Source: an uncultured Candidatus Saccharibacteria bacterium (GTDB lineage Bacteria > Patescibacteriota > Minisyncoccia > Phycocordibacterales > Phycocordibacteraceae). Taken from it: DNA of 64,000 nucleotides. The stretch lies in contig CAZQGQ010000002.1 in assembly GCA_964593365.1 (NCBI GenBank), positions 21,671-85,670 on the forward strand. The letters run 5' to 3'. Numbering within the stretch: the first letter of the stretch is position 1; each line of letters starts with the position of its first letter. Made by a program: the position numbers and the translations under genes. The notes beneath the pieces were generated by a model. That model had not been told where the DNA came from. It saw nothing but the letters and a program-made list of their open reading frames with translations, and searched no databases. Shown here in pieces: positions 12,598 to 41,887 of the stretch.

Positions 12598-12627
12598 GTT
12601 CGAATCCTAGCTAGCCAGAAAAATAAG

Positions 12628-12652
12628 GAGCCCCCGGATATACCGAGGGCTC
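12628..12652 (-). terminator. Hairpin GAGCCCCCGG-atata-CCGAGGGCTC; on the minus strand it is followed by a T-run
   Basis: 10-bp stem with one mismatch. Plus-strand AGAAAAATAA immediately upstream gives TTATTTTTCT after the hairpin on the minus strand. Sits 7 nt past the stop of the minus-strand ORF 12659..12862. Confidence 0.5.
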
Positions 12653-12658
12653 AAGGTT

Positions 12659-12862
12659 CTATGCCACTCCTTTCTTAAACTTGTTACGAATCGAATCAAA
12701 GATCCACAGAGTCAGACCCCCGACTGCAATCGAACATATCCAAAGGAATATAACGACTTCATAGTAGACTCTTCTAATTCCAGTCGGCTTGTTCCTCACA
12801 TAGCGAACCGAGTCGTAAGAGATACACATGGATTTCTCCTTTGAAGATCCACTTCCTGCCAA
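12659..12862 (-). CDS. Hypothetical small membrane protein (67 aa)
   Basis: ORF with one hydrophobic helix (VVIFLWICSIAVGGLTLWIF). Bracketed by two terminator-like hairpins. Coding status uncertain. Confidence 0.3.
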   Translation of the reverse strand: MAGSGSSKEKSMCISYDSVRYVRNKPTGIRRVYYEVVIFLWICSIAVGGLTLWIFDSIRNKFKKGVA

Positions 12863-12892
12863 GGACCATTCCCTAGCAGGGTGGTAGACCCA

Positions 12893-12923
12893 AAAGAAAA
12901 ACCCCGTGGAGACGGGGTTTTTC
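12893..12923. terminator. Bidirectional rho-independent terminator AAAAACCCCGTGGAGACGGGGTTTTT
   Basis: Perfect 6-bp GC stem CCCCGT/ACGGGG with a GGAG loop, flanked by an A-run and a T-run. Confidence 0.65.
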
Positions 12924-13078
12924 AGATGAGTTCTAGAAAGAAATGTCTAGGATACAGAGAAAGCGCCACCGTCGGGGTTTACGATGGGCGGTACGGGAAG
13001 TGCAAAAATGTGCGCTTTCGTATTCATGTTTAAGCAGAATAGCTTAGAAGTTCTAATAAATCAAGTACGTTATATAGG

Positions 13079-13104
13079 TTTCAACATTGTCCCATACAGC
13101 CAGC
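13079..13104 (+). repeat. Island box copy 1 (TTTCAACATTGTCCCATACAGCCAGC)
   Basis: Followed by TATAAT, then 6 nt, then the ATG at 13117. Confidence 0.6.
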
Positions 13105-13116
13105 TATAATAACGGT

Positions 13117-13923
13117 ATGGACAGCACTTCTGCCTCCGACCTTACGAAACGCAATAAAGAAGTCATTCAAAGATTTATTGACTCGGTTAGAGACCGTGCA
13201 GACGGCGTTTTGCTTAGCGGGTCAAACGCCTGGGGAGCGGACTATGCGGTTACCGAGAAATCGGATATCGATCTCTTGGTCCTGGCAAAGGATATCCAAG
13301 GCATGAAGAAAATAATCGATTGCTATATCAGTAATAAATTACTTGTACCTAGGGAGCAAGAACGATTTGAAGCATTTAGCGCGCTATATGAGGAAGGAAG
13401 AGTAGAACAATTTTCTGTGATTGCAGACTATAAGGGTGTTCCGGTGAGCATAGATTTCTTTACCACAAAAACATTACAGTGGATCAGTTTCTTAACTTCA
13501 AAAAATACTGTTCTTCTTAACGGCGTGAGAGTGAGAGTCGTAAGCGAGTTGCGAACAAATCCTCCAAAAGCTTTCGGCTATTCTCTTGATGATTTACAAA
13601 GCTCAAAGAAACTTACCTATCATCCGGTGTTCGAAGAAATAAAAAGTCAGAAAGGCAATGTCTGTGGGTACCTCGCGCAAACTGCAGTCGATGCCTCTGA
13701 TGAACATACTTACTATCTTGGCGTCATGTCGTTTTTCCTTTGTGTCAGTCCGGTCGTGCTATTAGATAAAAACGGCGAACTGCAACGAGCTATACGAGAT
13801 TTGCGAACAAACATCTCAATTCTTTTGAAAGGGGAAGTTCCTCGCCATGTGACAAGAGAAGAACGAATGTCTGAGCAGGTCTTAGAAGAGGTAAAGAATG
13901 CCCTTAGTCCTAAGGGAGCCTAA
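13117..13923 (+). CDS. Pol-beta superfamily nucleotidyltransferase (antibiotic or nucleotide NTase-like; specificity unknown)
   Basis: 268 aa from the ATG at 13117. The track opens at a TTG at 13087 that lies inside the upstream box. GS-x14-DID motif (LSGSNAWGADYAVTEKSDIDLLVL) with a downstream acidic residue (VSIDFF). The helical C-terminal half is similar in size to ANT/Lnu-type or Abi-type NTases. GC is lower than in the core genes. Confidence 0.55.
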   Translation: MDSTSASDLTKRNKEVIQRFIDSVRDRADGVLLSGSNAWGADYAVTEKSDIDLLVLAKDIQGMKKIIDCYISNKLLVPREQERFEAFSALYEEGRVEQFSVIADYKGVPVSIDFFTTKTLQWISFLTSKNTVLLNGVRVRVVSELRTNPPKAFGYSLDDLQSSKKLTYHPVFEEIKSQKGNVCGYLAQTAVDASDEHTYYLGVMSFFLCVSPVVLLDKNGELQRAIRDLRTNISILLKGEVPRHVTREERMSEQVLEEVKNALSPKGA

Positions 13924-13928
13924 AAAGA

Positions 13929-13954
13929 TTCCAACATCGTCTCAGGCAGCCAGC
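13929..13954 (+). repeat. Island box copy 2 (TTCCAACATCGTCTCAGGCAGCCAGC)
   Basis: Lies between the convergent NTase and transglutaminase-like genes. Followed by a weak TATTTT. Confidence 0.55.
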
Positions 13955-14451
13955 TATTTTCTACGTTCATTCTCTAACCACTCGTTAAAAGCAGCATAGA
14001 ACTCTCCGTTGAGAGCAAGGTCTTTATTAATGACCTCCACGTTCTCATCGGCGATAATTGCAGCACTTTCTTTAATGGAGAACAATTTTAAACAAGAAAC
14101 CGCGATAGACGTGTTCGACTTTCCGTCCCACTCACTGACAGGAAGAATCATACTCAAAGAATTATCCCAGGTCGCATCGACATTAATCCAGTCTTTTTCA
14201 TTAAGTACCTCAAGGTATGCATGGGTAGAAGCATCTTCGTGAGCCTTTCCTGACACCTCAACGGGAAGATTGATATCGCTCCATTTGAAGGAACATACGC
14301 GCCATCGTACCTGAAGCCCCTCCTTCTCAAGAAGCGACTTAAGCTGCTTATGTTTACCGGTACAGGATTTGTCAGTTTCCTTCGAGGTTAGCGGAATTCG
14401 ATAGGGAATATCCCGAACCTGATTGAAAATCTCACGTAGGTCGGCTCTCAT
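13954..14451 (-). CDS. Transglutaminase-like / papain-fold cysteine peptidase domain protein
   Basis: 165 aa. Putative Cys nucleophile in SCTGKH, then the H-A-Y-L-E-V ... W-I-N-V-D-A-T-W-D block characteristic of the transglutaminase-like core (Cys-His-Asp). Upstream on its own strand lies TTGGAA-16nt-TAGCAT-6nt-ATG. Confidence 0.5.
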   Translation of the reverse strand: MRADLREIFNQVRDIPYRIPLTSKETDKSCTGKHKQLKSLLEKEGLQVRWRVCSFKWSDINLPVEVSGKAHEDASTHAYLEVLNEKDWINVDATWDNSLSMILPVSEWDGKSNTSIAVSCLKLFSIKESAAIIADENVEVINKDLALNGEFYAAFNEWLENERRK

Positions 14452-14479
14452 ACCCCCATGCTAGCAGGTGCTTGGCAAG

Positions 14480-14505
14480 TTCCAACATCGTCCCAGACAG
14501 CCAGG
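14480..14505 (+). repeat. Island box copy 3 (TTCCAACATCGTCCCAGACAGCCAGG)
   Basis: In the divergent gap between the transglutaminase-like gene and the zinc-ribbon gene, about 155 nt upstream of the ATG at 14661. Confidence 0.6.
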
Positions 14506-14660
14506 GTTGCATGGCTTAAGCGAAAGGAATCTATCGATGTGTACAACAAAGAATCAACTTACAGTCCGTCCACTCTTGCGGATTGATCTGTATGTAAATG
14601 ACCATAATCTTGTGTTTCCGATTTTAATATGTTTTAATCCAATAAACATAACTCCTACTC

Positions 14661-15071
14661 ATGCCTGATTATCAAAAGCCTCGCTTTGCCAAAAAACCCT
14701 TTAACCGTGGGGGTCAAGATCGTTTTAGCGATTCAAAAGAGATGCACAAAACTAACTGCAGCAAATGTAACAATCTGTGCGAAGTACCGTTTCGCCCAAA
14801 CGGCAAGAAACCAGTTTTCTGCAGCAACTGTTTCGTCAAAGACGATGCGCCCCGTCCTTCATATGGTCCGAAGCGTGATTTTTCTCCACGTCCATCTTTT
14901 AGCCCAGCGCCTTCTCGCGATGACCATGGGATGCAGGATCTAAAAATGCAGATGCAAGGCGTAAACGACAAGCTTACCCAGCTCATTCAACTTATGGAAT
15001 CTGCCCAGGCGCCTGTTACTGAGAAGGCTTCAGTAAAAAGGGTAGCCAAAGCAGGGACTAAGAAGAAATAA
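14661..15071 (+). CDS. Hypothetical zinc-ribbon protein with a low-complexity Pro/Ser linker
   Basis: 136 aa. CSKCNNLCEVPFRPNGKKPVFCSNCF resembles a topoisomerase-type C4 zinc ribbon. Basic C-terminal tail. Confidence 0.4.
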   Translation: MPDYQKPRFAKKPFNRGGQDRFSDSKEMHKTNCSKCNNLCEVPFRPNGKKPVFCSNCFVKDDAPRPSYGPKRDFSPRPSFSPAPSRDDHGMQDLKMQMQGVNDKLTQLIQLMESAQAPVTEKASVKRVAKAGTKKK

Positions 15072-15110
15072 TAGCCAGTATCTCCACAAGGCATATTCTC
15101 TAAGCAAGGT

Positions 15111-15136
15111 TCCAACGTCGTCCCAGACAACCGGCT
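15111..15136 (+). repeat. Island box copy 4 (TTCCAACGTCGTCCCAGACAACCGGC)
   Basis: Followed by TATACT, then 6 nt, then the ATG at 15153. Confidence 0.6.
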
Positions 15137-15152
15137 CGTTTATACTAGTCCT

Positions 15153-15557
15153 ATGAAGATATATCTCGGTTGTTCACTTACTCAAGCTCCAGAGGACTTT
15201 AAGACCGTTATTGGAGACTTAAAGAACAGGCTCCGGCAGGACTACGACGTATTAGACTTCATTGGTACCGTCGCTGGCACACCTCATGAGGTCTACAACT
15301 GGGATATTCACGAATGCGTTGCAAAGTGCGATGCCTTCATTGCGATTTGCGATCTGCCAGCCATAGGTCTTGGTTATGAACTCAGTGTCGCAGTCGAGAA
15401 GCTCAAGAAGCCGACGCTCGCTCTTGCGCATACGGATGCGAAAATCTCACGTCTTCTTCTTGGTATCAAACAGCCTCACTACATATTTGAACGCTACGAT
15501 TCTTTTGACGAGGTGGAAGACCGGATCAGATTATTCCTAAGCAGTTTAGAGAAATAA
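15153..15557 (+). CDS. Nucleoside 2-deoxyribosyltransferase-like (NDT-like) Rossmann-fold protein
   Basis: 134 aa. N-terminal MKIYLGCS and the block AIGLGYELSVAVEKLKKP match the NDT signature (KIYFAG ... GLGMELGYA..GK). Confidence 0.5.
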   Translation: MKIYLGCSLTQAPEDFKTVIGDLKNRLRQDYDVLDFIGTVAGTPHEVYNWDIHECVAKCDAFIAICDLPAIGLGYELSVAVEKLKKPTLALAHTDAKISRLLLGIKQPHYIFERYDSFDEVEDRIRLFLSSLEK

Positions 15558-15558
15558 G

Positions 15559-15584
15559 TTGCAAGGTCGGCCCAGACTGGGGCA
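15559..15584 (+). repeat. Island box copy 5 (TTGCAAGGTCGGCCCAGACTGGGGCA)
   Basis: The core CCCAG-A-CTGGG is a perfect inverted repeat here. A TTTATAT sequence lies 4 nt before the ATG at about 15616. Confidence 0.5.
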
Positions 15585-15615
15585 CGTGGTACTGTTTTAG
15601 AAACTTTATATCCCT

Positions 15616-16479
15616 ATGTCTGTCGCAATTGGTGTCTTGCTTGCCTTGATAGCCCTCGTCGCATGGGGTTTGGGGGACTTTTTAATTCAGAGAACTACCA
15701 GGCTGGTAGGTAGCGCCAAGGCTCTTTTCTTCATAGGAGTTGTTGCATTCGTTGTTTTGTTTCCGTTTGTACTACACGAACTTCCACATCTCACGTTCGC
15801 AAACTACCTCTTGCTCGGGACGCTGTCTTTAGCGGTTATCTTCGGAGCAGCTTTTGACTTCGAGGCTCTGCGCACCGGCAAAATGGCCGCTGTTGAACCA
15901 GTGGTGGGTCTTGAGCTTCCGATGACGGTCATTCTGAGCGTCATCTTCGTAGGTGAACATCTAACAGGACATCAGCTCTTTTGGATGCTTCTCGTGTTCA
16001 TTGGAACGGGGCTTACGGTTACAAAAAGCATAAGCCACTTGTCACAGGCATTCGAAAAGGGAGTGTGGCTCGCCTTTCTAGCAGCAATTGGTACAGCGTT
16101 AACTTCGCTCTTGGTTGGTATGTCGAGTCAGGAGATTTCTCCACTCGTTTCTATATGGTTTTCGCACGGGACGTTAGCGCTCGTGTCGGGTCTGTATATT
16201 CTTCGTTCTGGCCAGATGAGATCCGTTATACAAGATATCCGCAGCCACCCTGTAACTATTGGCTGCCAAAGCGTCTTTGATAACCTCGCGTGGATTGCTT
16301 TTGCCATTGCAGCAACCCTTATTCCGATCTCAATCGCTACGACCATTAGCGGGGGATATGTTGCCCTTGGGGTACTGCTTGGTATTTTCGTAAGCCGCGA
16401 GCGTGTTCGTGGTCATCAGGCGTTCGGTATTGCGCTTGTATCGATTGGCATTATTGCTCTCTCCTATTATTTCAGCTAG
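15616..16479 (+). CDS. EamA/DMT-family transporter
   Basis: 287 aa, about 10 TM. GDFLIQR-type EamA signature and two internally repeated halves. Confidence 0.7.
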   Translation: MSVAIGVLLALIALVAWGLGDFLIQRTTRLVGSAKALFFIGVVAFVVLFPFVLHELPHLTFANYLLLGTLSLAVIFGAAFDFEALRTGKMAAVEPVVGLELPMTVILSVIFVGEHLTGHQLFWMLLVFIGTGLTVTKSISHLSQAFEKGVWLAFLAAIGTALTSLLVGMSSQEISPLVSIWFSHGTLALVSGLYILRSGQMRSVIQDIRSHPVTIGCQSVFDNLAWIAFAIAATLIPISIATTISGGYVALGVLLGIFVSRERVRGHQAFGIALVSIGIIALSYYFS

Positions 16480-16484
16480 CAAGA

Positions 16485-16510
16485 TTTCCATGTCGTTCCA
16501 GGCAATTAAT
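16485..16510 (+). repeat. Island box copy 6 (TTTCCATGTCGTTCCAGGCAATTAAT)
   Basis: Followed by TACTATATT, then 4 nt, then the ATG at 16534. Confidence 0.5.
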
Positions 16511-16533
16511 AACAATCTGTTACTATATTCCGC

Positions 16534-17073
16534 ATGAAAGTCATCATCGCTTCCCACAATCCTGTGAAAATCAATGCCGCTAGGGAAGCGTTCAAGCAAA
16601 TGTTTCCGGGAGAGACATTTGAGGTTATAGGGACTGATGTTCCTTCAGACGTTTCTGACCAACCTATGACCGACACTGAGACGTATACCGGTGCTGTAAA
16701 CCGCGCGGAAAACGCTTCCCAGAAAGAGAGCGATGCTGACTTCTGGGTAGGAATCGAGGGCGGATTAGAAGAGAAAAGTGGAGATCTTGAATGTTTCGCG
16801 TGGGTGGTAATAAAAGATAAAGACGGAACGATTGGCAAAGGAAGAAGCGCCGCGTTCTTTTTGCCGCCTGCGGTAGCCCAGAAGATCCGTGAGGGAATGG
16901 AACTCGGGCATGCAGCGGACGCAGTTTTTAACGAGACCAACCTGAAGCAAAACCAAGGCACCGTTGGCATGCTCACGAAGGGATTAATCGAGAGGACGAA
17001 GTACTATGTCGATCCGGCGATTATGGCGTTAATCCCGTTTGCGAACCCTTCGCTGTTTGGAAAAACTGGCTAA
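16534..17073 (+). CDS. Inosine/xanthosine triphosphatase, YjjX family
   Basis: 179 aa. NPVKINAAREAF, DFWVGIEGG and GMLTKGLIERT closely follow the E. coli YjjX pattern. Confidence 0.75.
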   Translation: MKVIIASHNPVKINAAREAFKQMFPGETFEVIGTDVPSDVSDQPMTDTETYTGAVNRAENASQKESDADFWVGIEGGLEEKSGDLECFAWVVIKDKDGTIGKGRSAAFFLPPAVAQKIREGMELGHAADAVFNETNLKQNQGTVGMLTKGLIERTKYYVDPAIMALIPFANPSLFGKTG

Positions 17074-17087
17074 GCTCAATTCTTTGT

Positions 17088-17543
17088 ATGGATCAAGGCA
17101 TTCTAGACTACATTAAATCCCAGCGAATCTCCGTGTTTGGAATCGAGATGCTTGATGGTTCACCACATGGTGCAACAGTACATTTCGCACATCAAGAGAA
17201 CCCGTTAACTTTCATATTTGAAACGAGTTCGAAATACCGCAAGAGCGAGCCCTTGCTCGCCAACGACACAGCCCGAGCAACGCTCGTCATTGGATTTGTT
17301 GAAGGGCCGACTGAAAAAACATTCCAAGCAGACGGGATCGCAACGTTGCTTACGAGTGATGACCAGCTAAAGAAAGTCTATCTGTCGAAGTTTCCAGAAA
17401 AGGAAGCAAAGGCAGGAGATCCAGACAACATTTTCTTCTCCTTCACTCCAACATGGTGGAGATTCACTGATTGGGGCCGACCAGAAGGGAAGACCGTTAT
17501 CACTTCAGACGGCAAAGTAGTTGTCGCAGGGAAGTCTGCTTAA
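17088..17543 (+). CDS. Pyridoxamine 5'-phosphate oxidase-like (split-barrel, FMN-binding) family protein
   Basis: 151 aa. Size and hydrophobic periodicity resemble PNPOx-like or general-stress-protein-26 folds. Only 14 nt downstream of the ITPase gene, so probably co-transcribed. Confidence 0.4.
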   Translation: MDQGILDYIKSQRISVFGIEMLDGSPHGATVHFAHQENPLTFIFETSSKYRKSEPLLANDTARATLVIGFVEGPTEKTFQADGIATLLTSDDQLKKVYLSKFPEKEAKAGDPDNIFFSFTPTWWRFTDWGRPEGKTVITSDGKVVVAGKSA

Positions 17544-17545
17544 AG

Positions 17546-18160
17546 CTATTTAGTATCCCGGCTCTTCCAAAGGATTCGGCAGGCGAGCGAGCGGTACGGA
17601 GACCAGCAAGCAGATATCTTCTCAAGCTTTGCCCGTGACGGGTTCTTGATCATATACAGATCTTCAATAGAGCGTACGAGCCCAAGGTCTCCTGCAGAGA
17701 AAATGTCCGGATGCTGAAGCGCGAACATGAGAAACATCTCGCTCGTCCAGGGGCCAATGCCCCATACTGCAGTTAATGTTTCTTCTGCTTCTTCCGGGGA
17801 CTTCTTGCGAAGGGAAGGGAGGTCGAGTCCTTTGGTAACCGCTTTTGCGAGTTCTTTTAAGGTCTTTGCTTTTGCGCTGGAGAGTCCGGCTTTGCGAAGG
17901 CGGGGAAGAGAAGTCTTCAGTACTGACGAAGGAGTGACCTTGCCTCCGCACACACTTTCTACCCGAGCCCAAATAGCGTCCGCTGCCTTCACGGCTAGCT
18001 GCTGGCTTACGACTGATTCAGCAAGCGCCGCGAACAAGCGATCAGACCCGCGTACTTGAGGACGTCGCAGAATAAGTTTCCGGTGACTGTACGCAGCTTG
18101 GTACATGATTGGATCGACGCGCTTGAAGTGGCGAAGAGCGTTAGGGAGATCAGGATGCAT
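17546..18160 (-). CDS. alkA: DNA-3-methyladenine glycosylase II-like (HhH-GPD)
   Basis: 204 aa. Helix-hairpin-helix motif VWGIGPWTSEMFLMFAL followed by a catalytic Asp in SAGDLGL. Confidence 0.7.
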   Translation of the reverse strand: MHPDLPNALRHFKRVDPIMYQAAYSHRKLILRRPQVRGSDRLFAALAESVVSQQLAVKAADAIWARVESVCGGKVTPSSVLKTSLPRLRKAGLSSAKAKTLKELAKAVTKGLDLPSLRKKSPEEAEETLTAVWGIGPWTSEMFLMFALQHPDIFSAGDLGLVRSIEDLYMIKNPSRAKLEKISACWSPYRSLACRILWKSRDTK

Positions 18161-18167
18161 AGTGAAG

Positions 18168-18186
18168 TTGATTATACCCAGGAGCC
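18168..18186 (+). repeat. Degenerate island box copy 7 (TTGATTATACCCAGGAGCC)
   Basis: Retains the CCCAG-GAGCC core. Followed by TATATAAT, then 7 nt, then the ATG at 18224. Confidence 0.3.
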
Positions 18187-18223
18187 TTCCTTTTTACGCA
18201 CGTTAGGCTATATAATCCGTCGT

Positions 18224-18421
18224 ATGGTACGCCTCATTATCTGGATCGTTATTGGGCTTCTGGCCCTCTCATTTTTTGGCATCTCCCTTCGAGCACTCGT
18301 TGATAACCCAACAAACCAGGACAATTGGTCCTTTTTACTAGCCTTGCTCCGAGACGGCTGGGACTATATAACCGCTTGGTTTGAAGATGCATTCCGCCCG
18401 ATCGCTCAGTGGTTCGACTAA
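18224..18421 (+). CDS. Hypothetical small membrane protein (65 aa)
   Basis: Internal ATG of track ORF 18056..18421. The earlier part of that ORF is antisense to alkA. One TM helix (LIIWIVIGLLALSFFGI). Confidence 0.45.
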   Translation: MVRLIIWIVIGLLALSFFGISLRALVDNPTNQDNWSFLLALLRDGWDYITAWFEDAFRPIAQWFD

Positions 18422-18513
18422 ATCTTCATAAAGTCTTCATTGTTCTTGTTGTATTACTTGGGTACCGGGTTCCTTTACTGGAACCCCATTTGTCCATTTA
18501 CTTTTACCCTCGT

Positions 18514-18741
18514 ATGAAGACAGTGGCACTGGCAGCAACGCTTTTCCTCGTAGGACCCGCACTCGCAATGGCCGCCACGTACGCATATGTGAACACAGCA
18601 GGAGAAGTGATGTCTGTGGAAGCTTCAACAGCTACCCAGGCTCTCACTACAGCTCCAAACCTTCACGTTCATAGCGGCGTGATGCTTGTTGACGGCTCAG
18701 ATGATTCTGAAGTCATCGGAGACGACGTTCCTGGAACCTAA
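18514..18741 (+). CDS. Hypothetical small secreted protein (about 75 aa)
   Basis: Internal ATG of track ORF 18409..18741. Signal-peptide-like N-terminus MKTVALAATLFLVGPALAMA. Confidence 0.4.
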   Translation: MKTVALAATLFLVGPALAMAATYAYVNTAGEVMSVEASTATQALTTAPNLHVHSGVMLVDGSDDSEVIGDDVPGT

Positions 18742-18767
18742 AGAAAAGATAAACCGGTTTATTTGTT

Positions 18768-18797
18768 AAACTCCCGGAGTCATGACTTCGGGAGTTT
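18768..18797. terminator. 30-nt near-perfect palindrome AAACTCCCGGAGTCATGACTTCGGGAGTTT
   Basis: 9-10 bp stem AAACTCCCG/CGGGAGTTT with a self-complementary loop AGTCATGACT. Lies 27 nt after the stop of the small secreted protein. Could be a terminator or a protein-binding site. Confidence 0.5.
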
Positions 18798-18872
18798 AGC
18801 GTTTCTCCTTGCTTCATGAATAAGTTCACAAACTCGCTCATAATCGTCTTCGACCCTATACTTTAGAGACAT

Positions 18873-19739
18873 ATGCATACCTCACGTCTACATCTTTCAG
18901 TGTTAGGAATCCTCATGTTTTCTCTCATCTTCTTTCCAAGCAGCACCTTCGCTGCAGTTAAGGGAGAATTTGACCAGGCGTCCCTTATTTCAACGACAAC
19001 CCGCCCAACTTTGAGCGGCGAGATCTCTGGAGCCTCTGTCGTGCGTGTTCTTGTTGAAAACGAGAAGGGAAAGAATGTCTATAAGAGTAAGGACATCAAG
19101 GCAAAGGGCGGGGAGTGGAAAACCAAGGTTTCTAAGCTCCTCACCGTTGGAAAGTACAAAGTCACCCTCTACAGCGTTCAAAGCGGTAAGCAAAGCATTG
19201 TTACCACAGGAACCCTTACGATCTTGTCTAAGAAAGGAACTCCGACGACCTCATCCTCAGGAACAAAGAAGCCTACGACAAGCTCTGCGAGTGGCGGAAC
19301 TCTCTCAGCTTCTCCAGTCCCGCTTTTGTGGGGCGGTAACGCAGCGCACGGAGCCTCGATCCCTGTTGCATACGTGAAGCTTATAAATACTGGCAAGACC
19401 ACAACTTCAATTGATGGGTTCCGCCTTATAGAAAATGGATCCGCTCCTGACGATGTTGTTATCGGGTTCTCAGTAAGCGACGATAAGGGCGGCTCGCGCG
19501 CAACGATAGGAGGTTTCGAAGGATCAAAACAATTCAACAAAGGCTCAGCCTTCGTTCCGCTTCCTGCAACGCTTGCACCCGGACAGCTGCGCATCTTTAC
19601 GATAAAAGCGATTTTGAGTCGCGATAGCGGCATTCACTTTGGCAAACAACTTTTGATAGATGTCGCTGGAGTTGAAGGCAAAGCATCTACCAAAGGCACC
19701 TTCCCGATGCGCGGCACCACTTGGACGCTTACGTACTAA
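18873..19739 (+). CDS. Hypothetical secreted protein with signal peptide and Ser/Thr-rich linker
   Basis: 288 aa. N-terminal hydrophobic signal ending FAA. Central run TPTTSSSGTKKPTTSSASGG. Confidence 0.5.
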   Translation: MHTSRLHLSVLGILMFSLIFFPSSTFAAVKGEFDQASLISTTTRPTLSGEISGASVVRVLVENEKGKNVYKSKDIKAKGGEWKTKVSKLLTVGKYKVTLYSVQSGKQSIVTTGTLTILSKKGTPTTSSSGTKKPTTSSASGGTLSASPVPLLWGGNAAHGASIPVAYVKLINTGKTTTSIDGFRLIENGSAPDDVVIGFSVSDDKGGSRATIGGFEGSKQFNKGSAFVPLPATLAPGQLRIFTIKAILSRDSGIHFGKQLLIDVAGVEGKASTKGTFPMRGTTWTLTY

Positions 19740-20232
19740 CGAAGAACGCTCCAGCATAGCTAGAGCGTAAAAACCGACGCGAGGGTCAAGGTGGGCGATG
19801 TGCGGCGGGAAAGCAATTTACCGGACCCGCACAAACATCAACCCTCGCATCGGCGACGGCACGGGAAGCATTAGGGCCGAGAGGGAGGAACGGGGCGGGG
19901 ATGTTCCTAACTCGAAGCTTGTCTGCAACCCGTGACGCTTCGAGGATATTGGACTAGGGAACCAGCTGTGTCAAGAATGTTTTACTTTCAGTATTAGACA
20001 GGGAAGTCAGGTACAGAAAACGCCCCCGAAAAGTTGGAGGCGCAAATGCGGACATGGGAACCAAGGGAGCATAGTCGTGCTGCACGAATCGCGGTGTGGT
20101 AGCGGACACCATTTGCCTTCACGACTACCTTGGCCCCATGCCGCAGACAGATACTAGGCTTTATGAAGTATCTCGTCAAATGGAGGCTTCACTACAACAC
20201 ATCTCGGTCGACCGAGATTAGGTTCTAGAGCA
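19740..20232. other. 490-nt ORF-free GC-rich region with several perfect stem-loops (candidate structured ncRNA; class not identified)
   Basis: Nested helices GCGAGGGT(19778)/ACCCTCGC(19848) enclosing GTGCGG/CCGCAC. Further hairpins CTCGAAGC/GCTTCGAG (19911-19942) and AGGAAC/GTTCCT. An 18-bp palindrome lies at 20201-20218. On the minus strand the large stem is followed by GTCGGTTTTT. Confidence 0.3.
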
Positions 20233-20496
20233 GTGTATGCTTATAGAATGGACTTTAACGCAATGCCTAAGCTTATATGTGATGCCTGGCACCTGAATAA
20301 CAATCGGGTGTGGTTCTTCTTCGGTTTTACCTCAGGAACTGATAAATCAGCCCTCCTTCTCAGTCCTAAAGGCGCTAAGGGCTTCCTTCTCGAGCTCCAG
20401 AAGCGAATTACTAAGTACGAGAAAGACCATGGGGAGATAGATATGACCGGCCATCAAGCAGGAATTCAGTCTCCAATACAAATAAAGCCGGAGTAA
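20233..20496 (+). CDS. Hypothetical protein (87 aa)
   Basis: ORF directly downstream of the perfect palindrome. No recognisable motif. Confidence 0.35.
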   Translation: MYAYRMDFNAMPKLICDAWHLNNNRVWFFFGFTSGTDKSALLLSPKGAKGFLLELQKRITKYEKDHGEIDMTGHQAGIQSPIQIKPE

Positions 20497-20842
20497 AGGA
20501 TCAGAAGCCGTTTTCCTTGTTCCCTTAGGAGTACTTCGCAAAAGATATATTGTGCGAAGGTCTTATATTTTAGGTCAGATAAGCTTAGGGATCTCCGTTC
20601 AATATGTCTTCCCCACCTAATGAGCAGTCTTTATAACTTAAACTGGTTATGCGAACACTCGCTCTCATTTCTCCACTTTGTAAAAGATGTACTGCTATAA
20701 ATCCCCTCTCAGTAGGGTACTGGGGGAGAGTTGAGAGACGATTTAGGTAAAAAACTGAAAAAGATCTCTGACTCCCCTACCCTAATCTATTTCACTAAAA
20801 TCGACACCTTTAACATTTGAGTGTTCAGTTGAAAGAAATTAA

Positions 20843-21511
20843 CTAAAATAACTTCTTTCTACTTTCTTTCATCACCTTAACCCCTGGTTTCGCATACTCA
20901 ATTGATTCCATCCGAGCCAAATCTGCGTGAGGGACAGCTTCCAACTCCTCAGTTAATTCGCTACAAAGAACGTCAAATCTTGATTCAACGTACATTCTCG
21001 TTTTTGTAATCAGCAACTCAAGGTTTTGTATATTTTCTGAAGTATTCATTTCTGCACTAAAACTCACACCTATAATCTTAGCTATCTTGAAAGGCGCTCC
21101 TGGCTTATTAATCACTGCGCCTGGTAGACATTGCATTAAAGGGTTATCATCGTGAGCTATATTTTTATCCCTTAGATCCTTGAAAAACTCGAAAACTTCC
21201 TGACCCATAAGGTCTCCTTTTAGGACCTCTTCCTTGAATAGCTGCGTAGCTCTTGCATTATTTTTTCCAAAACATTTAAGAAAACTAATCACAGCCAACC
21301 GCCAGAAGACTTTTTGTTCAAGGCTTCTATCTTCTGCATTCTTCAAAGCTACCAAACAGTCTTGAGCTGTTATCAGATCGTGTCTGTGGAGAGTCATATC
21401 TGCCAACTCCTGGGCTTTCTTGCCTCGCAGCGCGACTGCTTTAAGTGCGTCCGGGAAGTCAGTTAGACGCAGACCTGTTCCCTCTTGGTGCTCAATGTTT
21501 AATTGCTGCAT
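20843..21511 (-). CDS. Hypothetical protein with a putative HEPN-like Rx5H motif (third gene of the AT-rich operon)
   Basis: 222 aa. Strong SD (GGAGGGGAAG) 8 nt upstream. Sequence FFKDLRDKNIAHDDNP contains R-x5-H. GC about 38-40%. Confidence 0.45.
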   Translation of the reverse strand: MQQLNIEHQEGTGLRLTDFPDALKAVALRGKKAQELADMTLHRHDLITAQDCLVALKNAEDRSLEQKVFWRLAVISFLKCFGKNNARATQLFKEEVLKGDLMGQEVFEFFKDLRDKNIAHDDNPLMQCLPGAVINKPGAPFKIAKIIGVSFSAEMNTSENIQNLELLITKTRMYVESRFDVLCSELTEELEAVPHADLARMESIEYAKPGVKVMKESRKKLF

Positions 21512-21551
21512 ACCAGCATCCTACTTCCCCTCCCTCTCTAAACAAACATAT

Positions 21552-21887
21552 CTAAGAACCAAGAATATCTTTCAAAACTTGATCAAAACCGTGCAATTTG
21601 CCCTGCAGAACACCAAAAAGGGTGGTCAACTTTTCTTTACCTTCAGGACCGAAAACGTCTTCTCCAAAACGAAGGTAAGTTTGCTCGTCTTCTTTTGAAG
21701 CGTAGAAGTACATATGATAATCTCCGTCTTCATCTTGCATTATTGACCATAAGTATTTATTGCCGGGATAAGTAAAGAAATATTCTTCTGCGTTCTCGAC
21801 AGGTGTTGTAGGTTTTCGCACTGATTGGATTTGATCCTGATCAGATAACATTTTTTTCACAACGTCTTGTATTTGTTTGTCATTCAT
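21552..21887 (-). CDS. Hypothetical protein (second gene of the AT-rich operon)
   Basis: 111 aa from the internal ATG, which lies 1 nt after the upstream stop. The track ORF extends to 21920. Acidic, Tyr-rich, no known motif. Confidence 0.4.
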   Translation of the reverse strand: MNDKQIQDVVKKMLSDQDQIQSVRKPTTPVENAEEYFFTYPGNKYLWSIMQDEDGDYHMYFYASKEDEQTYLRFGEDVFGPEGKEKLTTLFGVLQGKLHGFDQVLKDILGS

Positions 21888-21888
21888 A

Positions 21889-22404
21889 TTATTTTTGTTG
21901 TTTTGAAGTATGATTTTCAATCTCTAAGGTTGTGAGTCGTTCCTTCAACTCCGTGCATAAACTTATTTTATCCGTTTCATTAACTGTTCGTCCAGCATCC
22001 AGTTCATCTATCATTATTTTAATAGGTTTTAACACTTTTGTACCCATGTGTTTTTGTAATATTTCGTTTCCACGAATCTTTCCATGAATACGAGCAAGGG
22101 TTACTCGCACAGCACGTGGGTTAGGAGGGTCTTCGATTGAATGCTCATTTAACTTCTCTATTAAGTGATTTAAATCTGAAAGAGAGGTTCTTAAAGAATA
22201 ACTAAGTAACAGGGAAAAGGCTGCAGAAATCTTCTTTCTCTGTGTTAAGCCGATAACGAACGCAGCAATACCAAGTAGAACCTGAACAATGTCAGCGCTA
22301 AATGATGTCAAGGCAACTATGAATGTTGCAGTGCTGGTGGACACTAATCTAAAATAGCATAAAAAATCGAGCCGCCCGTAATCTCTTGTACCGACTTCGT
22401 ACAA
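21889..22404 (-). CDS. Hypothetical membrane protein, 2 TM plus a cytoplasmic domain (first gene of the AT-rich operon)
   Basis: 171 aa. Hydrophobic helices FIVALTSFSADIVQVLLGIAAFVIGL. Confidence 0.4.
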   Translation of the reverse strand: MYEVGTRDYGRLDFLCYFRLVSTSTATFIVALTSFSADIVQVLLGIAAFVIGLTQRKKISAAFSLLLSYSLRTSLSDLNHLIEKLNEHSIEDPPNPRAVRVTLARIHGKIRGNEILQKHMGTKVLKPIKIMIDELDAGRTVNETDKISLCTELKERLTTLEIENHTSKQQK

Positions 22405-22440
22405 CGCAGATTGTGCACCTCCTGTTATACTCCTGGCTAT

Positions 22441-22917
22441 ATGGCAGAGAACGGCGAACCAGACGGCAAATCTAAGCTTATAAAGGAGTTAGAGGTCGCT
22501 GGCCAACTTGAGTCTATTAAGACGCAACTCACAACCGCGGTTGAGAAGCGTAAACGCGCTCGAGAGTTCCTAGCGATCCGAAAGGACATTCTCACCAGGC
22601 TTGAAGAGAAGTTCGCTGCAAACCCCAATATCACGAAAGGAGAAGTCGTTTTGGACATAGGAGCATGGGCAACGACCGAAGAAGAGATGCATAAAAACAA
22701 TTCCAAGGCTACGGAGATTTTTGAGAAACTTACTGCCTCGTATCCAGAAGAAGATCTTGATGAGGACGTTCCTGAAAACGATACGGATCAAGAAGGTCTC
22801 GATACCCTTTCAAACGAGTTCCAAGACCTAACGCTCCTGGTCTTTCAAGAAACACAAGAAATGGAGCCGCAGGTGCAGCGTCTCCGAGTACTCATAGACA
22901 AGCTACGACAGTCTTAG
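22441..22917 (+). CDS. Hypothetical acidic coiled-coil protein, divergent from the AT-rich operon
   Basis: About 158 aa from MAENGEPD. The track opens at 22411. Strongly acidic C-terminal half (EEDLDEDVPENDTDQEGLD). Confidence 0.4.
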   Translation: MAENGEPDGKSKLIKELEVAGQLESIKTQLTTAVEKRKRAREFLAIRKDILTRLEEKFAANPNITKGEVVLDIGAWATTEEEMHKNNSKATEIFEKLTASYPEEDLDEDVPENDTDQEGLDTLSNEFQDLTLLVFQETQEMEPQVQRLRVLIDKLRQS

Positions 22918-23663
22918 CACTGCGTGTTCGCGACGATGTACTCGTACGCTTCATCTACTGAATCAACGAGCTTGTAGAGATCCATATCCGCCTCATCGAT
23001 CGCGTGATACTGCTCATAGAGCTTCGTCTTGAAGTGGTGCAAGACTGGTGTCCAGTATTCCTTACCGTAGAGCACGATCGGAATCTTCTTTATGTTCCTC
23101 GTCTGCACAAGCGTAAGGATCTCTGTGAACTCGTCCATGGTGCCAAAACCTCCTGGGAAGTAGATGTAGACCTCAGAAGCAAACGTAAGCATCACCTTGC
23201 GCACGAAGAAGTGATCGAACATGAGCTGCTCCGTGACGTAGCGGTTGGTGGACTGGTTGTCTGCGAGGCGGATATTCAAACCAACAGATGCACCTCCCGC
23301 TTCAAATGCCCCGCGATTGGCTGCTTCCATGATGCCTGAAGCGCCTCCGGTAATGATCGAGAACCCGCGCTTGGAAAGGCGCGCTGCAAGATCCGTCGCG
23401 TCTTGGTAGAGCTTGCTGTCAAAGGTTGCACGGGTAGTACCGAAAAAAGATGCTGCAAGCGCGTGCTTTTGCAGGAGTTCGAATCCTTCCACGAATTCGG
23501 ACATGATCTTGAATACGCGCCACGGTTCAAGCTCGCGAGGCTTACACACCAGAGGATTAGGCTCCTCGGGTACCGAGCCCTTCCCTTCCTCGACCATGCG
23601 CGCGACTTTGAGCCCCATCTGCTGATGCTCTGCCGGTGTTTTTGGTTTCAAGTCGTCAGCCAT
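22914..23663 (-). CDS. LOG-family protein (cytokinin riboside 5'-monophosphate phosphoribohydrolase-like; TIGR00730)
   Basis: 249 aa. ITGGASGIMEAANRGA and FPGGFGTMDEFTEIL motifs. Confidence 0.8.
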   Translation of the reverse strand: MADDLKPKTPAEHQQMGLKVARMVEEGKGSVPEEPNPLVCKPRELEPWRVFKIMSEFVEGFELLQKHALAASFFGTTRATFDSKLYQDATDLAARLSKRGFSIITGGASGIMEAANRGAFEAGGASVGLNIRLADNQSTNRYVTEQLMFDHFFVRKVMLTFASEVYIYFPGGFGTMDEFTEILTLVQTRNIKKIPIVLYGKEYWTPVLHHFKTKLYEQYHAIDEADMDLYKLVDSVDEAYEYIVANTQC

Positions 23664-39833: not shown

Positions 39834-40130
39834 CTAGCGAGACGCCCGGGTCACGGTTGGCGTGCCATCAAGCGCTACGTATTCAACTCGCTCCGGGAGG
39901 ACCAAACCGATGCTTGCCGCATCAATCTCATTCAAGCTTGCGATTTGAGCGTAGTACTGCGTTTCGAGAGCGCCTACGCGGCTCTCAGCCTCGCGAACGG
40001 AAGCCGCAAGTTCCGTCTGGGACGCTGCAAACAAGACCGCCGTTGCCAGAAGGCCTAGGTATGCGGTAAGCGCGAGGGCGCAAGCCGCAGAGAGTGCTGG
40101 GATGAGTTTAGGCATAGGCATAGGTGGCAA
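39834..40130 (-). CDS. ftsL: Cell division protein FtsL-like
   Basis: 98 aa single-TM coiled-coil protein between rsmH and ftsI. Confidence 0.55.
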   Translation of the reverse strand: MPPMPMPKLIPALSAACALALTAYLGLLATAVLFAASQTELAASVREAESRVGALETQYYAQIASLNEIDAASIGLVLPERVEYVALDGTPTVTRASR

Positions 40131-41049
40131 AGTGAGTAAGTGAAGAGGTCCCGCCTTCTAAACGCTCGAAGATGCGGAGCTTAGCGGAACGAGCGCGAGG
40201 GTTCTGTGTTCGCTCAGTTATAGAAGGCTCAATTGGCTTCTTGGTGATGACGGTTCCAAAACCCCCGTGTGCCCCATCTCGGAACATTGTTTTGACGACT
40301 CGGTCCTCAAGACTATGGAACGTGATGACAGCAATGCGTCCGCCAACCGAAAGGCGCTTCATCGCGCTTTGGAGCCCTTCGCGAAGCGCGCCGAGTTCAT
40401 CATTTACGTACATGCGAAGCGCTTGGAATGTTTTGGTTGCCGGATGGATGCGGCGACCGTGATACCACTCTGGTGTGCTTGCAATGACTGCGTCAGCGAG
40501 TGCCGTTGTCGTAAGGATGCGTTCCTTGGAACGGATGCGCACGATGCCGCGTGCGATTTGGCGTGCGAAGCGTTCTTCGCCAAGCGAGTGGAGAATATCG
40601 GAGAGCGTTTCCTCAGTGGCTGAGTTAACGACATCTGCCGCGGTTTTCCCCATTTCAGGAGTTCCGTAGGTCATGAGAAGCGGTTCCTCAACGCGAAATG
40701 AAAACCCACGACCGGACGTGAGGTGATACGAGCTCCAGCCCAGATCAAAGAGCGCTCCTGAAATTGTCTCCACCTGAAGCTCATCTAATATCCGATCAAG
40801 GTCACGGAAGTTCCCGAGCACTACTTCAGCGCGCACTCCCTCGCTTGTGCCTGCGATCTCTTTCCCTCGTTCAACTGCCTCAGGATCCGCATCAATGCCG
40901 ATCAGGAGCCCCTCGTGTTCAAGCTTCTGTAGCAATGCGCCGTAGTGCCCTGCCCCGCCAATAGTGGCGTCGACAATGATGTCGCCAGGAACGACGTTCA
41001 GCCCTTCGACTGCTTCCTTCAAAAAGACGCTTTCGTGTACGGAAGTCAT
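40108..41049 (-). CDS. rsmH: 16S rRNA (cytosine1402-N4)-methyltransferase
   Basis: About 313 aa from MTSVHESVFLKEAVEGL. The track opens at 41142. SAM motif VDATIGGAGH. Confidence 0.85.
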   Translation of the reverse strand: MTSVHESVFLKEAVEGLNVVPGDIIVDATIGGAGHYGALLQKLEHEGLLIGIDADPEAVERGKEIAGTSEGVRAEVVLGNFRDLDRILDELQVETISGALFDLGWSSYHLTSGRGFSFRVEEPLLMTYGTPEMGKTAADVVNSATEETLSDILHSLGEERFARQIARGIVRIRSKERILTTTALADAVIASTPEWYHGRRIHPATKTFQALRMYVNDELGALREGLQSAMKRLSVGGRIAVITFHSLEDRVVKTMFRDGAHGGFGTVITKKPIEPSITERTQNPRARSAKLRIFERLEGGTSSLTHFATYAYA

Positions 41050-41050
41050 A

Positions 41051-41470
41051 TTAGATGGAAAGCTTCTCAGCGAACTGATCAGCATCGCGCTCGATCGACG
41101 CGGTGTACGAAGTCCAAGCGCTCTCATCCCAAATCTCAACACGATCAGACACGCCGGCGATCACACTCTTCTCTTTCAAGTTTGCAAAGGAGCGAAGATA
41201 GTCTGGAACCAAGACGCGTCCTGCAGAATCAACGTCAGCTTCAGCAGCTCCTGCGAGCATGAGGCGTGCAAGGCCGCGGCCGGCGCTTCCGCCAGTTGAA
41301 TGACCTGCTATCTTTGCTGCTTCTTTCTTCCAAGAGGCTTTCGGGTATACAAAAAGACACTTATCGAGTCCGCGCGTCACAATGACGGAGTTACCGAGTT
41401 CCTTCCGGAACTTAGCCGGAAGTGAGATGCGATTTTTCGCGTCAAACGTGTGTCGGTACTCTCCTATGAA
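41051..41470 (-). CDS. mraZ: Transcriptional regulator MraZ
   Basis: About 139 aa from MFIGEYRHTFDAKNRISLP. Duplicated DxxxR motifs (DAKNRISLP / DSAGRVLVP). Confidence 0.85.
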   Translation of the reverse strand, partial: FIGEYRHTFDAKNRISLPAKFRKELGNSVIVTRGLDKCLFVYPKASWKKEAAKIAGHSTGGSAGRGLARLMLAGAAEADVDSAGRVLVPDYLRSFANLKEKSVIAGVSDRVEIWDESAWTSYTASIERDADQFAEKLSI

Positions 41471-41635
41471 CATGAAAATAATGTGAGGGGGTGAAGTGAG
41501 GCCGTGGAAACACCCGCCGAAACCTTCCACTCACAAGCGTTCCACCATGACTTGGAACGGTATTGGAGTTTAAAAAACAAACTGTGGGTGGAAGGTCTCG
41601 ACGGGCGTTTGGGGATGATCTGTCTTAAAGTGATT

Positions 41636-41660
41636 ATCCCTAATCCCACTTCATCCCACT
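41636..41660 (-). promoter_or_regulatory. Candidate MraZ operator: three GGGAT direct repeats upstream of mraZ
   Basis: Minus strand reads GTGGGATgaaGTGGGATtaGGGAT, with repeat starts spaced 10 and 7 nt apart, about 170-190 nt upstream of the mraZ start. Confidence 0.4.
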
Positions 41661-41887
41661 AGTAAGCAAGTATATGACACTCTCTCCCACTTCCCTCTTT
41701 TAAGCCTGTGGATAAGGGAAGAAACGTTCGTTGACAGCCATATACAAGGCCGATAGGATGGTTCCTACATGACTCAAGCGATGTCCCAGGTCCTACGTAT
41801 TGTGATTCGTACCCTACTTACCAAGGTCGGGGTTTCGCTTGAGCTTTCTCCAATACGCATCTAAAAGGACAAAGAGAACACTGAAGC

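Follow-up and report, generated by a model that had tools for sequence, protein, structure and literature searches.

What does the gap at positions 19740-20232 of a 64-kb stretch of contig CAZQGQ010000002.1 encode? The whole stretch is called the window below, and the region lies in it between the gene for an immunoglobulin-like (Ig-like) protein of 288 amino acids (aa) and a gene for a protein of 82 aa. The gap proper extends to position 20247, the downstream gene starting at the ATG at 20248 (gene call in L001), a start that is kept in the orthologous contig L059. An original prediction, made from the letters of the window, had proposed a single structured non-coding RNA on the minus strand. 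The present analysis points, with moderate confidence, to two independent small-RNA genes arranged in tandem on the minus strand, members of a previously undescribed family located beside a putative dif site. In each of the two predicted units, a sigma-70-type promoter (TTGACN, 17 nucleotides (nt), nAnTAT) would precede a long, imperfect, rod-like hairpin, and transcription would end at a Rho-independent terminator. Three orthologous contigs (L059, L061 and L064), 25 predicted viral contigs from IMG/VR (L065-L089) and a number of other relatives (remaining L-numbers) were used as comparison loci. Homologues of the Ig-like protein carry the label Candidatus Paceibacterota or Patescibacteria, and identical copies of the sequence occur in JGI metagenome 3300020186 and in other samples.

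The unit closer to the putative dif site is referred to as RNA-1. Its promoter, P1 (20151..20179, minus strand), was identified by a promoter scan and consists of TTGACG at 20179-20174, a 17-nt spacer and TAGTAT at 20156-20151. RNA-1 is predicted to be about 130 nt long (20144-20013, minus strand, with ends that we infer). Its rod-like hairpin measures about 100 nt (20146-20046) and leads into the intrinsic terminator T1; the minimum free energy (MFE) of RNA-1 is -62.8 kcal/mol. T1 (20013..20043, minus strand; terminator scan) is built from GCGCCTCC, a loop and GGGGGCGT, then TTTTCTGT; the GC-rich stem runs into UUUUCUGU. In the internal-loop region of the rod, the 3' side contains the stretch AUUCGUGCAG (20080..20089, minus strand), which is invariant in the window, L061 and L064 despite variable flanking helices and is missing from L059.

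The second unit, RNA-2, follows on the same strand. Its promoter P2 (19946..19974, minus strand) was found in our own scan and has TTGACA at 19974-19969, a 17-nt spacer and CAATAT at 19951-19946. RNA-2 is predicted to start at 19940 and to consist of two modules, b and c, with its end either at 19769, which gives about 172 nt up to a run of five U residues, or at 19741, which gives about 200 nt if transcription proceeds past a small additional hairpin. Module b, the core hairpin of RNA-2 (19853..19938, minus strand), has the base GCGUCACGGG...CCCGUGCCGUCGC. Equivalents of module b were found in L059, in L058 and in the second unit of L061 and L064, called unit A (GGACGACACGGGAG...CUCCCGUGUCGUCC). 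Module c is an 80-nt hairpin (19774..19853, minus strand) followed by UUUUU at 19773-19769. The small hairpin, ACGCTC-11-GAGCGT followed by TCTTCG (19746-19768, minus strand; terminator scan), is located directly past the stop codon of the Ig-like gene and may be the final terminator of RNA-2. An equivalent hairpin, followed by UUUCUU, is present in L059.

Both units carry sequence features of stand-alone small-RNA genes. Upstream of each is a sigma-70-type promoter with consensus matches and 17-nt spacing, and downstream are the Rho-independent terminators T1, module c with its U-tract and the hairpin at 19768-19746. All promoter and terminator signals, found with the scan tool and in our own scan, were on the minus strand. 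The helices listed in the original prediction are all present where it had placed them. These are the small hairpin, the nested stem GCGAGGGT...ACCCTCGC around GTGCGG...CCGCAC (within 19774-19853), the helix AGGAAC-11-GTTCCT (19886-19908) and the helix CTCGAAGC-18-GCTTCGAG (19911-19944), together with the minus-strand GTCGGTTTTT at 19778-19769. The CTCGAAGC/GCTTCGAG helix straddles the predicted start of RNA-2 and is unused in the MFE folds. The large nested stem, as part of module c, is followed by terminator-like sequence on the minus strand, and the proposed 3' end near 19770 is plausible.

The proposal of one minus-strand transcript of about 450 nt was not supported. According to this explanation the region is one structured non-coding RNA, in which the internal terminator is a structural hairpin or an attenuator. 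All modules have one orientation, read-through of T1 is possible, and the whole region folds well on the minus strand (z -7.9). However, T1 is a canonical terminator, with a GC-rich hairpin and then UUUU, and after it a perfect TTGACA -35 box and a conserved -10 box are found in all four genomes. In the MFE fold of the whole region the bodies of RNA-1 and RNA-2 do not pair with each other. The two halves are connected only by a weak closing helix at the periphery, which joins the far 5' flank (around a palindrome at 20201-20218) to the spacer just past T1. Furthermore, a gene of 323-364 aa separates the two units in L061 and L064, and L006 and L058 have a single unit each. Since an internal terminator (20043-20013), an internal promoter (19974-19946) and, in two orthologues, an intervening gene divide the region, it was assigned to two units and not to one, and a single long RNA is considered quite improbable. 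The intervening gene, at L061 5006-6100 and L064 4983-5954, has the same orientation in both contigs and no Pfam annotation.

The region was found to be non-coding. No frame-consistent protein similarity was detected, either by tblastn of relatives' open reading frames (ORFs) or by six-frame comparison with the orthologous regions. In the tblastn search 3144 translations gave no match inside 19740-20232. The six-frame comparison gave similarity in several frames and on both strands simultaneously, which means that conservation is at the nucleotide level and not at the coding level. The mechanical ORF list contains one 61-aa ORF with a TTG start (19994..20179, minus strand), which traverses a terminator. 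The statement of the original prediction that the region lacks any ORF of 60 aa or more is therefore literally incorrect, but there is no conserved reading frame, and nothing supports this ORF as a gene. Short ORFs inside the RNAs, read from the sequences as possible toxins or peptides, were neither conserved nor hydrophobic. The original prediction had itself named a decayed gene, to be sought by tblastn with the proteins of relatives, as one of the findings that would overturn it. In favour of such decay, the gap is comparable in size to a small gene, and in relatives the Ig-like gene is often followed immediately by another gene. However, the empty tblastn search, the multi-frame similarity on both strands and folding z-scores far outside the coding range make a pseudogene extremely unlikely. 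The region also differs in composition from the surrounding AT-rich island, as had been noted; its GC content is 54.2%, compared with 46.0% for positions 13000-23000 and 52.3% for the whole window.

Folding stability was expressed as MFE z-scores against 100 dinucleotide shuffles. The region has an MFE of -190.3 kcal/mol on the plus strand (z -5.72) and -198.6 kcal/mol on the minus strand (z -7.93), and none of the 100 shuffles was as stable. Eight coding controls of 493 nt from the same window gave z-scores from -0.8 to +2.6. Compared with the background of this genome the region is more structured, and the strand asymmetry favours the minus strand. The minus strand was the more stable one in 10 of 12 units, and it was richer in G-U pairs in all 12. 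Together with the strand of the promoter and terminator signals, this agrees with the original proposal of a structured, non-coding region whose minus strand is the functional one.

Orthologues in the three further contigs retain both promoters and both terminators, while the hairpin arms have been altered by compensating substitutions. By nhmmer, RNA-2 matched L059 with an E-value of 3.1e-17, and RNA-1 matched L061 and L064 with E-values of 2.4e-11 and 1.5e-7; RNA-1 of L059 was detected with a covariance model. L059 has the entire arrangement, including an 80-aa gene and the dif site. In L061 and L064, RNA-1 adjoins dif and unit A lies directly after the Ig-like gene. P1 and P2 are kept in sequence and spacing in all four genomes. 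The P1 pattern ATTTGAC-17-nAnTAT is found in L059, L061 and L064 and also in L005, L006 and L058, and the P2 pattern TTCTTGACA-17-(C/T)AGTAT in L059, L061 and L064. T1 is kept with compensating changes in L059, L061 and L064, and was also found in L005 and L006. Conservation is unevenly distributed between the window and L059. Identity was 93% for dif, 72% for the P2 promoter segment, 71% for the 82-aa gene and 68% for module c, the arms of which are nearly identical. It fell to 45% for module b and 41% for the RNA-1 hairpin, the segments adjoining P2 having 28-45%. Even at 41% identity of the RNA-1 hairpin, every orthologue still folds as a rod followed by a terminator.

A comparative alignment searched for compensatory changes, as the original prediction had advised, gave compensating double changes in 7 of 28 consensus pairs of RNA-1 and 7 of 43 of RNA-2 (RNAalifold; four genomes, hence low power). 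In a hand-made alignment of RNA-1 helices 89 of 90 cells were paired. A helix of 6 bp covaries at all six positions, being CCAAGG/CCUUGG in the window, CUGAUG/CAUCAG in L061, UUGGUG/CACCGG in L064 and UUGAGA/UAUUGA in L059. The sole unpaired cell of this helix is a G-A in L059.

The signals of the locus could also be those of a functionless cluster of terminators or insulators at the place where transcription of the two replichores converges, with promoters that are vestigial or there by chance. Gene orientation does converge here, nine terminator-like hairpins were found in 3 kb compared with 3.4 expected, and many relatives have no such units. On the other hand, the hairpins of 80-100 nt are far beyond what a terminator needs, and each of them has its own short terminator besides. 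The sequence and spacing of P1 and P2 are kept where the flanking Ig-like protein is only about 55% identical. The 82-aa gene on the plus strand moreover intervenes between the minus-strand genes and the minus-strand terminators. A mere terminator cluster is accordingly an improbable explanation.

A covariance model, R1, was built from the four RNA-1 orthologues and searched over 391 kb. Beyond the training set it matched unit A of L061 and L064, window positions 19737-19858, L058, L005 (two matches) and L006, with E-values from 4e-5 to 5e-3. All of these matches are minus-strand units between the Ig-like gene and dif. The match at 19737-19858 (29.5 bits, E 5e-5) covers module c and the small hairpin, so module c looks like a third, promoter-less copy of a hairpin-plus-terminator module. 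Three related hairpin modules would thus form a local array here, distributed over two transcription units. Within the window R1 recognized this local array and, in addition, two weak places near 42.4 kb (E 0.07 and 0.19). When the region was searched as a possible dispersed repeat, of the kind of miniature inverted-repeat transposable elements (MITE) or repetitive extragenic palindromes (REP), nhmmer matched only the region itself within the 64 kb.

Minus-strand units with promoter, hairpin and terminator were recovered by our own scan in the window (two), L005 (two), L006, L024, L035 and L058. In L011 two hairpin-terminator units were found, with a promoter match for one of them, and no unit of this type was found on the plus strand. 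One or two modules are found in some relatives and none in about half of them, and in most relatives the Ig-like gene is not followed by any gap. A first nhmmer search of 58 loci (including L005-L007 and 51 loci fetched via the flanking Ig-like protein) gave no sequence homologue of the region. Six hairpins taken from different genomes were also aligned with MAFFT, but the poor quality of this alignment did not justify a claim of homology. In all fetched loci with units, the units lie between the Ig-like gene, which is the last gene of the left replichore, and dif, and they are transcribed away from dif. The units appear to form a lineage-restricted family, so far seen only in some Paceibacteria of the Candidate Phyla Radiation (CPR). 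Distant memberships assigned by R1 are tentative.

Several observations weigh against two small-RNA genes. The promoters and terminators are identified by consensus matches only, and P2 of the window falls below the threshold of the promoter scan tool because CAATAT fits only three of the six consensus positions. The covariation comes from three orthologous genomes, which gives it little statistical power, and the alignment of one helix was manual. R1 describes little more than a "long hairpin plus terminator", and the E-values obtained with it are approximate. A scan of 200-nt stretches regressed on GC content placed the region at only about z -2.5, and three other places in the window were more extreme. 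The near-identical arms of module c in the window and L059 could equally mean a constraint at the DNA level. Finally, about half of the relatives with the same order of gene and dif lack such a unit, and the RNAs are consequently either dispensable or quickly replaced.

The location of the units was analyzed through the dif-like Xer site at 20532-20560 (plus strand). This site of 28 bp, (T)ACTTCGCAAAA-GATATA-TTGTGCGAAG(G), the right arm of which can also be written TTGTGCGAAGG, has two imperfect inverted arms of 11 bp and a 6-bp centre. It lies about 300 nt to the right of the region, which spans about 300-800 nt left of it. The 20-nt core CGYAAAAGRTATATTGTGCG occurs once in the window and once per locus in about 25 relative loci, always on the plus strand and 0.02-1.6 kb past the Ig-like gene. 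Across 13 loci the right arm does not vary, in contrast to the left arm, and the inner core is kept in more distant loci. The site thus has the 11-6-11 architecture with one more-conserved arm, in single copy, at a shift in skew: cumulative GC skew peaks at about 14-20 kb, and gene orientation flips from plus to minus at about 20.5 kb. Ten large ORFs of the window were tested, and none of them matched the integrase family or FtsK.

A polar motif inverts at the same place. AGGGAAG is found 12 times on the plus strand and once on the minus strand left of dif, and 3 and 17 times, respectively, on the right. Among 754 frequent 7-mers of the window it is the one with the strongest strand switch (p 1.4e-5, about 0.01 after correction), and related G-rich words come next. 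The genes that contain the copies at 27835, 27865, 31543 and 17811 carry them on the non-coding strand, and the bias accordingly tracks the replichore and not the gene. The consensus is approximately GCAGGGARG, and copies near the region are at 19999-20008 (plus) and 20770-20783 (minus). The first of these, CAGGGAAGTC (19999..20008, plus strand), points to dif from between the two RNA units, and AGGGAAGT is kept at this position in L059, L061 and L064. AGGGARG is a candidate FtsK-orienting, KOPS-like motif of this lineage. By the criteria of earlier work (PMC3025954, PMC3384302) the site is a putative dif with a KOPS-like motif. The presence of these two elements places the region at the replication terminus, a setting that the original prediction had missed.

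The DNA to the left of dif is also enriched in short motifs. In a set of 20 loci, the 450 nt on this side of dif contained ATCTCG[GT] at 3.67/kb compared with 0.28/kb elsewhere (present in 18 of the 20 loci), GTGGGC[CG] at 1.4/kb compared with 0.11/kb, and GGGAAGT at 3.3/kb compared with 0.19/kb. The enrichment is about 13-fold for each of the first two, ATCTCG[GT] often appearing as the inverted pair ATCTCGG-N4-CCGAGAT, and 17-fold for GGGAAGT. In the window the pair forms the palindrome ATCTCGG-TCGA-CCGAGAT, ATCTCGGTCGACCGAGAT (20201..20218), between P1 and the divergent 82-aa gene, with a half-site ATCTCGT at 20172-20178. The ATCTCGG palindrome is also present in L007, L059, L061 and L064. 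ATCTCG[GT] and GTGGGC[CG] look like candidate binding sites for a terminus protein or a dif accessory protein. P1 lies about 215-360 nt from the dif core, and in the window the 82-aa gene (20248..20496, plus strand), divergent from RNA-1, intervenes. This gene has a weak similarity to DUF3467 (Pfam E 0.0037, below the curated cutoff). Since P1 is located among the enriched motifs, and in L061 a GTGGGCC box overlaps the P1 spacer and -10 box, a regulatory link to dif is possible.

With such a setting, the region could instead act as DNA, its RNA signals being incidental. It would then be terminus or dif accessory DNA, its hairpins and short motifs, in double-stranded or extruded form, serving to bind Xer accessory proteins, factors that load or orient FtsK, or terminus-organising or fork-arrest proteins. 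This explanation is in agreement with the position of the region beside a well-supported dif at the skew and orientation switch, with the 13- to 17-fold enriched motifs and with the almost invariant arms of module c in the window and L059. However, G-U pairs and folding energy favour one strand, which is not expected of a DNA cruciform. The hairpin arms change by compensation under little sequence constraint, unlike protein-binding sites, and the enriched motifs are beside the hairpins and not within them. In addition, each hairpin is flanked by a promoter with a spacer of exactly 17 nt and by a terminator with a U-tract, and these signals are conserved. A purely DNA-level role is regarded as unlikely, and two small-RNA genes next to dif are still the preferred explanation.

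Some further features were seen close to dif. A second ORF-free block is located to the right of it, at window positions 20561-20842 (about 250-280 nt), with counterparts at L006 7304-7540, L058 811-1045 and in other loci. Its far end carries a conserved GACTCCCCTRCCCT, the polar motif in reverse, and an internal CCCCTTCCCC...GGGGAGGGG hairpin is found in several relatives; the block has no Rfam match. Positions 20674-20701 of the window (CACTTTGTAAAAGATGTACTGCTATAAA) resemble the left arm and centre of dif with a degenerate right arm, are not conserved in relatives and are maybe a scar of Xer integration. Long perfect palindromes lie just left of dif at L006 7180-7303, L005 7340-7433 and L060 5020-5132. 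They contain an inverted left dif arm and degenerate dif-like sequence (e.g. TCGCAAAGATGCAGAATGTGCGCA) and are reminiscent of the folded attP of Xer-dependent phages.

The dif core was also found in viruses. The 25 predicted viral contigs of IMG/VR (3.9-43 kb, GC 30-47%) carry ATGTCGYAAAAGRTATATTGTGCGACAT, the same core, for example at L075 274-293 and L068 1239-1258. L075 and L068, the two small contigs that were examined, encode a Zot-family ATPase, a protein of inovirus assembly, above the Pfam cutoff. The dif-carrying contigs look like filamentous phages of Patescibacteria that would use the Xer/dif system of the host, and their arrangement is as expected for Xer-dependent integration of such phages. 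The region might correspondingly be the scar of a Xer-integrating mobile element (IMEX or filamentous phage), with hairpins that were once single-strand origins or packaging signals. The shared core and the Zot genes are in line with this origin, as are the high variability of the interval between the Ig-like gene and dif among relatives and the degenerate dif-like repeats near dif in L005, L006 and L060. A position-weight scan for a degenerate dif, however, was negative at the left edge, the sole weak site being at 20674, to the right of dif. The RNA-1 motif had no match in IMG/VR, and R1 gave one weak short match in the 25 viral contigs (L078, 53 nt, 21 bits, E 0.003). The neighbouring genes had no Zot match, and PADLOC, NCBIfam, PHROGs and Pfam gave no defence, phage or curated-family match for them. 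An origin as mobile-element scar is very unlikely on this evidence.

The region was compared with known RNA families by searching Rfam, a check that the original prediction had proposed, and no known family was matched. At the gathering threshold, Rfam 15 identified two tRNAs only in the whole window. At E<=10 positions 19600-20400 gave spurious microRNA and small nucleolar RNA matches only, of 12-16 bits. Transfer-messenger RNA (tmRNA), RNase P RNA and signal recognition particle (SRP) RNA were absent even at this E-value, in accordance with the original prediction, and ARAGORN detected no tmRNA. Ten relative loci gave no Rfam matches, and for the right-hand neighbour of the region and for L006 nothing real was found either. 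Inspection by eye for an SRP-like or 6S-like RNA led to rejection of both, as neither a GNRA-capped domain IV motif nor a central bubble was present. Base-pairing targets were searched with RNAduplex against 63 translation-initiation regions. The best z-score was -2.8, the duplexes were implausible ones with long loops, and no target was outstanding.

A mechanism can be outlined on the basis of these comparisons. The units would be transcribed, either constitutively or under local control, and their products would function as stand-alone regulatory RNAs. A link between their expression and events at dif is possible. The stable rod would serve as a scaffold, and a protein or an RNA could be contacted through AUUCGUGCAG in the case of RNA-1, or through the arms of module c, which are nearly invariant. 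Because no convincing base-pairing target was found in the window, a protein partner is at least as likely as an antisense target.

Further features were observed elsewhere in the window. Positions 41401-41700 contain the strongest-folded 200-nt stretch after GC correction (z -4.3 on the plus and -4.7 on the minus strand). The MraW/RsmH gene (40108-41142, minus strand) is located downstream of this stretch, for which Rfam gave no match at the gathering threshold. Another well-folded ORF-free gap of about 490 nt, at 12598-13086, has a bidirectional terminator (12898-12926), a GGGAAGT at 12995 and, by eye, a possible minus-strand ORF of about 55 aa at approximately 12663-12832. Two full-length MreB paralogues are encoded at 47577-48632 and 57380-58393, a noteworthy number for so small a genome (about 0.66 Mb).

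CPR genomes are small, 0.6-1 Mb, and have few regulators. A full-text literature search on Patescibacteria non-coding RNA returned no paper describing small regulatory RNAs in CPR/Patescibacteria, and a search on dif or small RNAs in CPR returned no relevant paper. A conserved family of promoter-hairpin-terminator RNAs that database models do not recognize would offer a concrete entry point to CPR small RNAs. For practical use the terminus context, i.e. the dif core, AGGGARG, the dif-flank motifs and the dif-carrying phage contigs, may outweigh the RNAs themselves. It could be used to locate termini, to orient metagenome-assembled contigs and to recognize Xer-dependent mobile elements in CPR genomes.

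The closest known kind is presumably that of tandem trans-acting bacterial small RNAs in which each copy has a promoter and a Rho-independent terminator of its own, such as PrrF1/PrrF2 and OmrA/OmrB. Like these, the units are stand-alone intergenic non-coding genes in local tandem copies, have a sigma-70-type promoter and an intrinsic terminator per copy, and evolve fast with structure kept over sequence. They differ in having no sequence or Rfam relationship to them and no target found, in a CPR host, and in a body that is one rod of 80-100 nt, whereas PrrF and Omr RNAs have short seed regions with small hairpins. 6S RNA is likewise a rod-like, largely double-stranded small RNA with structure conserved over sequence. 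However, no Rfam 6S match was obtained at E<=10, and the hairpin described here is only about 100 nt long, with small internal loops and no large central bubble. The plasmid antisense copy-control RNAs of the RNAI/ctRNA type also consist of hairpins followed by a terminator. Rfam matches to them were weak, far below gathering thresholds, and covered only terminator hairpins in related or neighbouring sequence; unlike the plasmid systems, the locus has no plasmid context and no overlapping sense transcript was identified.

The DNA site itself is comparable to chromosomal dif/XerCD systems with FtsK-orienting polar sequences, KOPS/SRS (PMC3025954, PMC3384302). Common features are a single-copy 28-bp site with 11-6-11 architecture and one conserved arm at the skew shift, a G-rich polar motif that inverts at the site, and filamentous phages that carry the same core. 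The core CGYAAAAGRTATATTGTGCG and the polar motif AGGGARG are lineage-specific here, and the additional conserved motifs of the left flank are not known for chromosomal dif sites.

A parallel to the combination of an Xer site and a small RNA is the Rcd RNA of plasmid ColE1, which is transcribed from the promoter Pcer inside the Xer site cer, is made in plasmid dimers and binds tryptophanase (PMC4393325). In both cases a small structured non-coding RNA has its promoter in DNA flanking an XerCD core. Rcd binds a protein and not an antisense target, which would fit a rod-like RNA without an obvious target. In contrast, Rcd is plasmid-borne and Pcer lies within the approximately 240-bp cer, whereas P1 is some distance from a chromosomal dif; there is no sequence similarity, and the family described here is missing in many relatives with the same dif. 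It is conceivable, though a long shot, that the locus is a chromosomal counterpart of the Rcd checkpoint. In that case the dif flank of these Paceibacteria would be a true accessory region, with ATCTCGG palindromes, GTGGGCC boxes and clustered KOPS-like GGGAAGT motifs as its marks, P1 would fire on the state of Xer/FtsK, e.g. at an unresolved dimer, and the RNA would bind a protein and delay division or replication. Coupling of the RNAs to dif, if true, would link dimer resolution to an RNA signal, so far known only for plasmid ColE1, and with an Rcd-like role this would be the first case of a chromosomal dif site that has an RNA output, in organisms whose regulatory repertoires are minimal.

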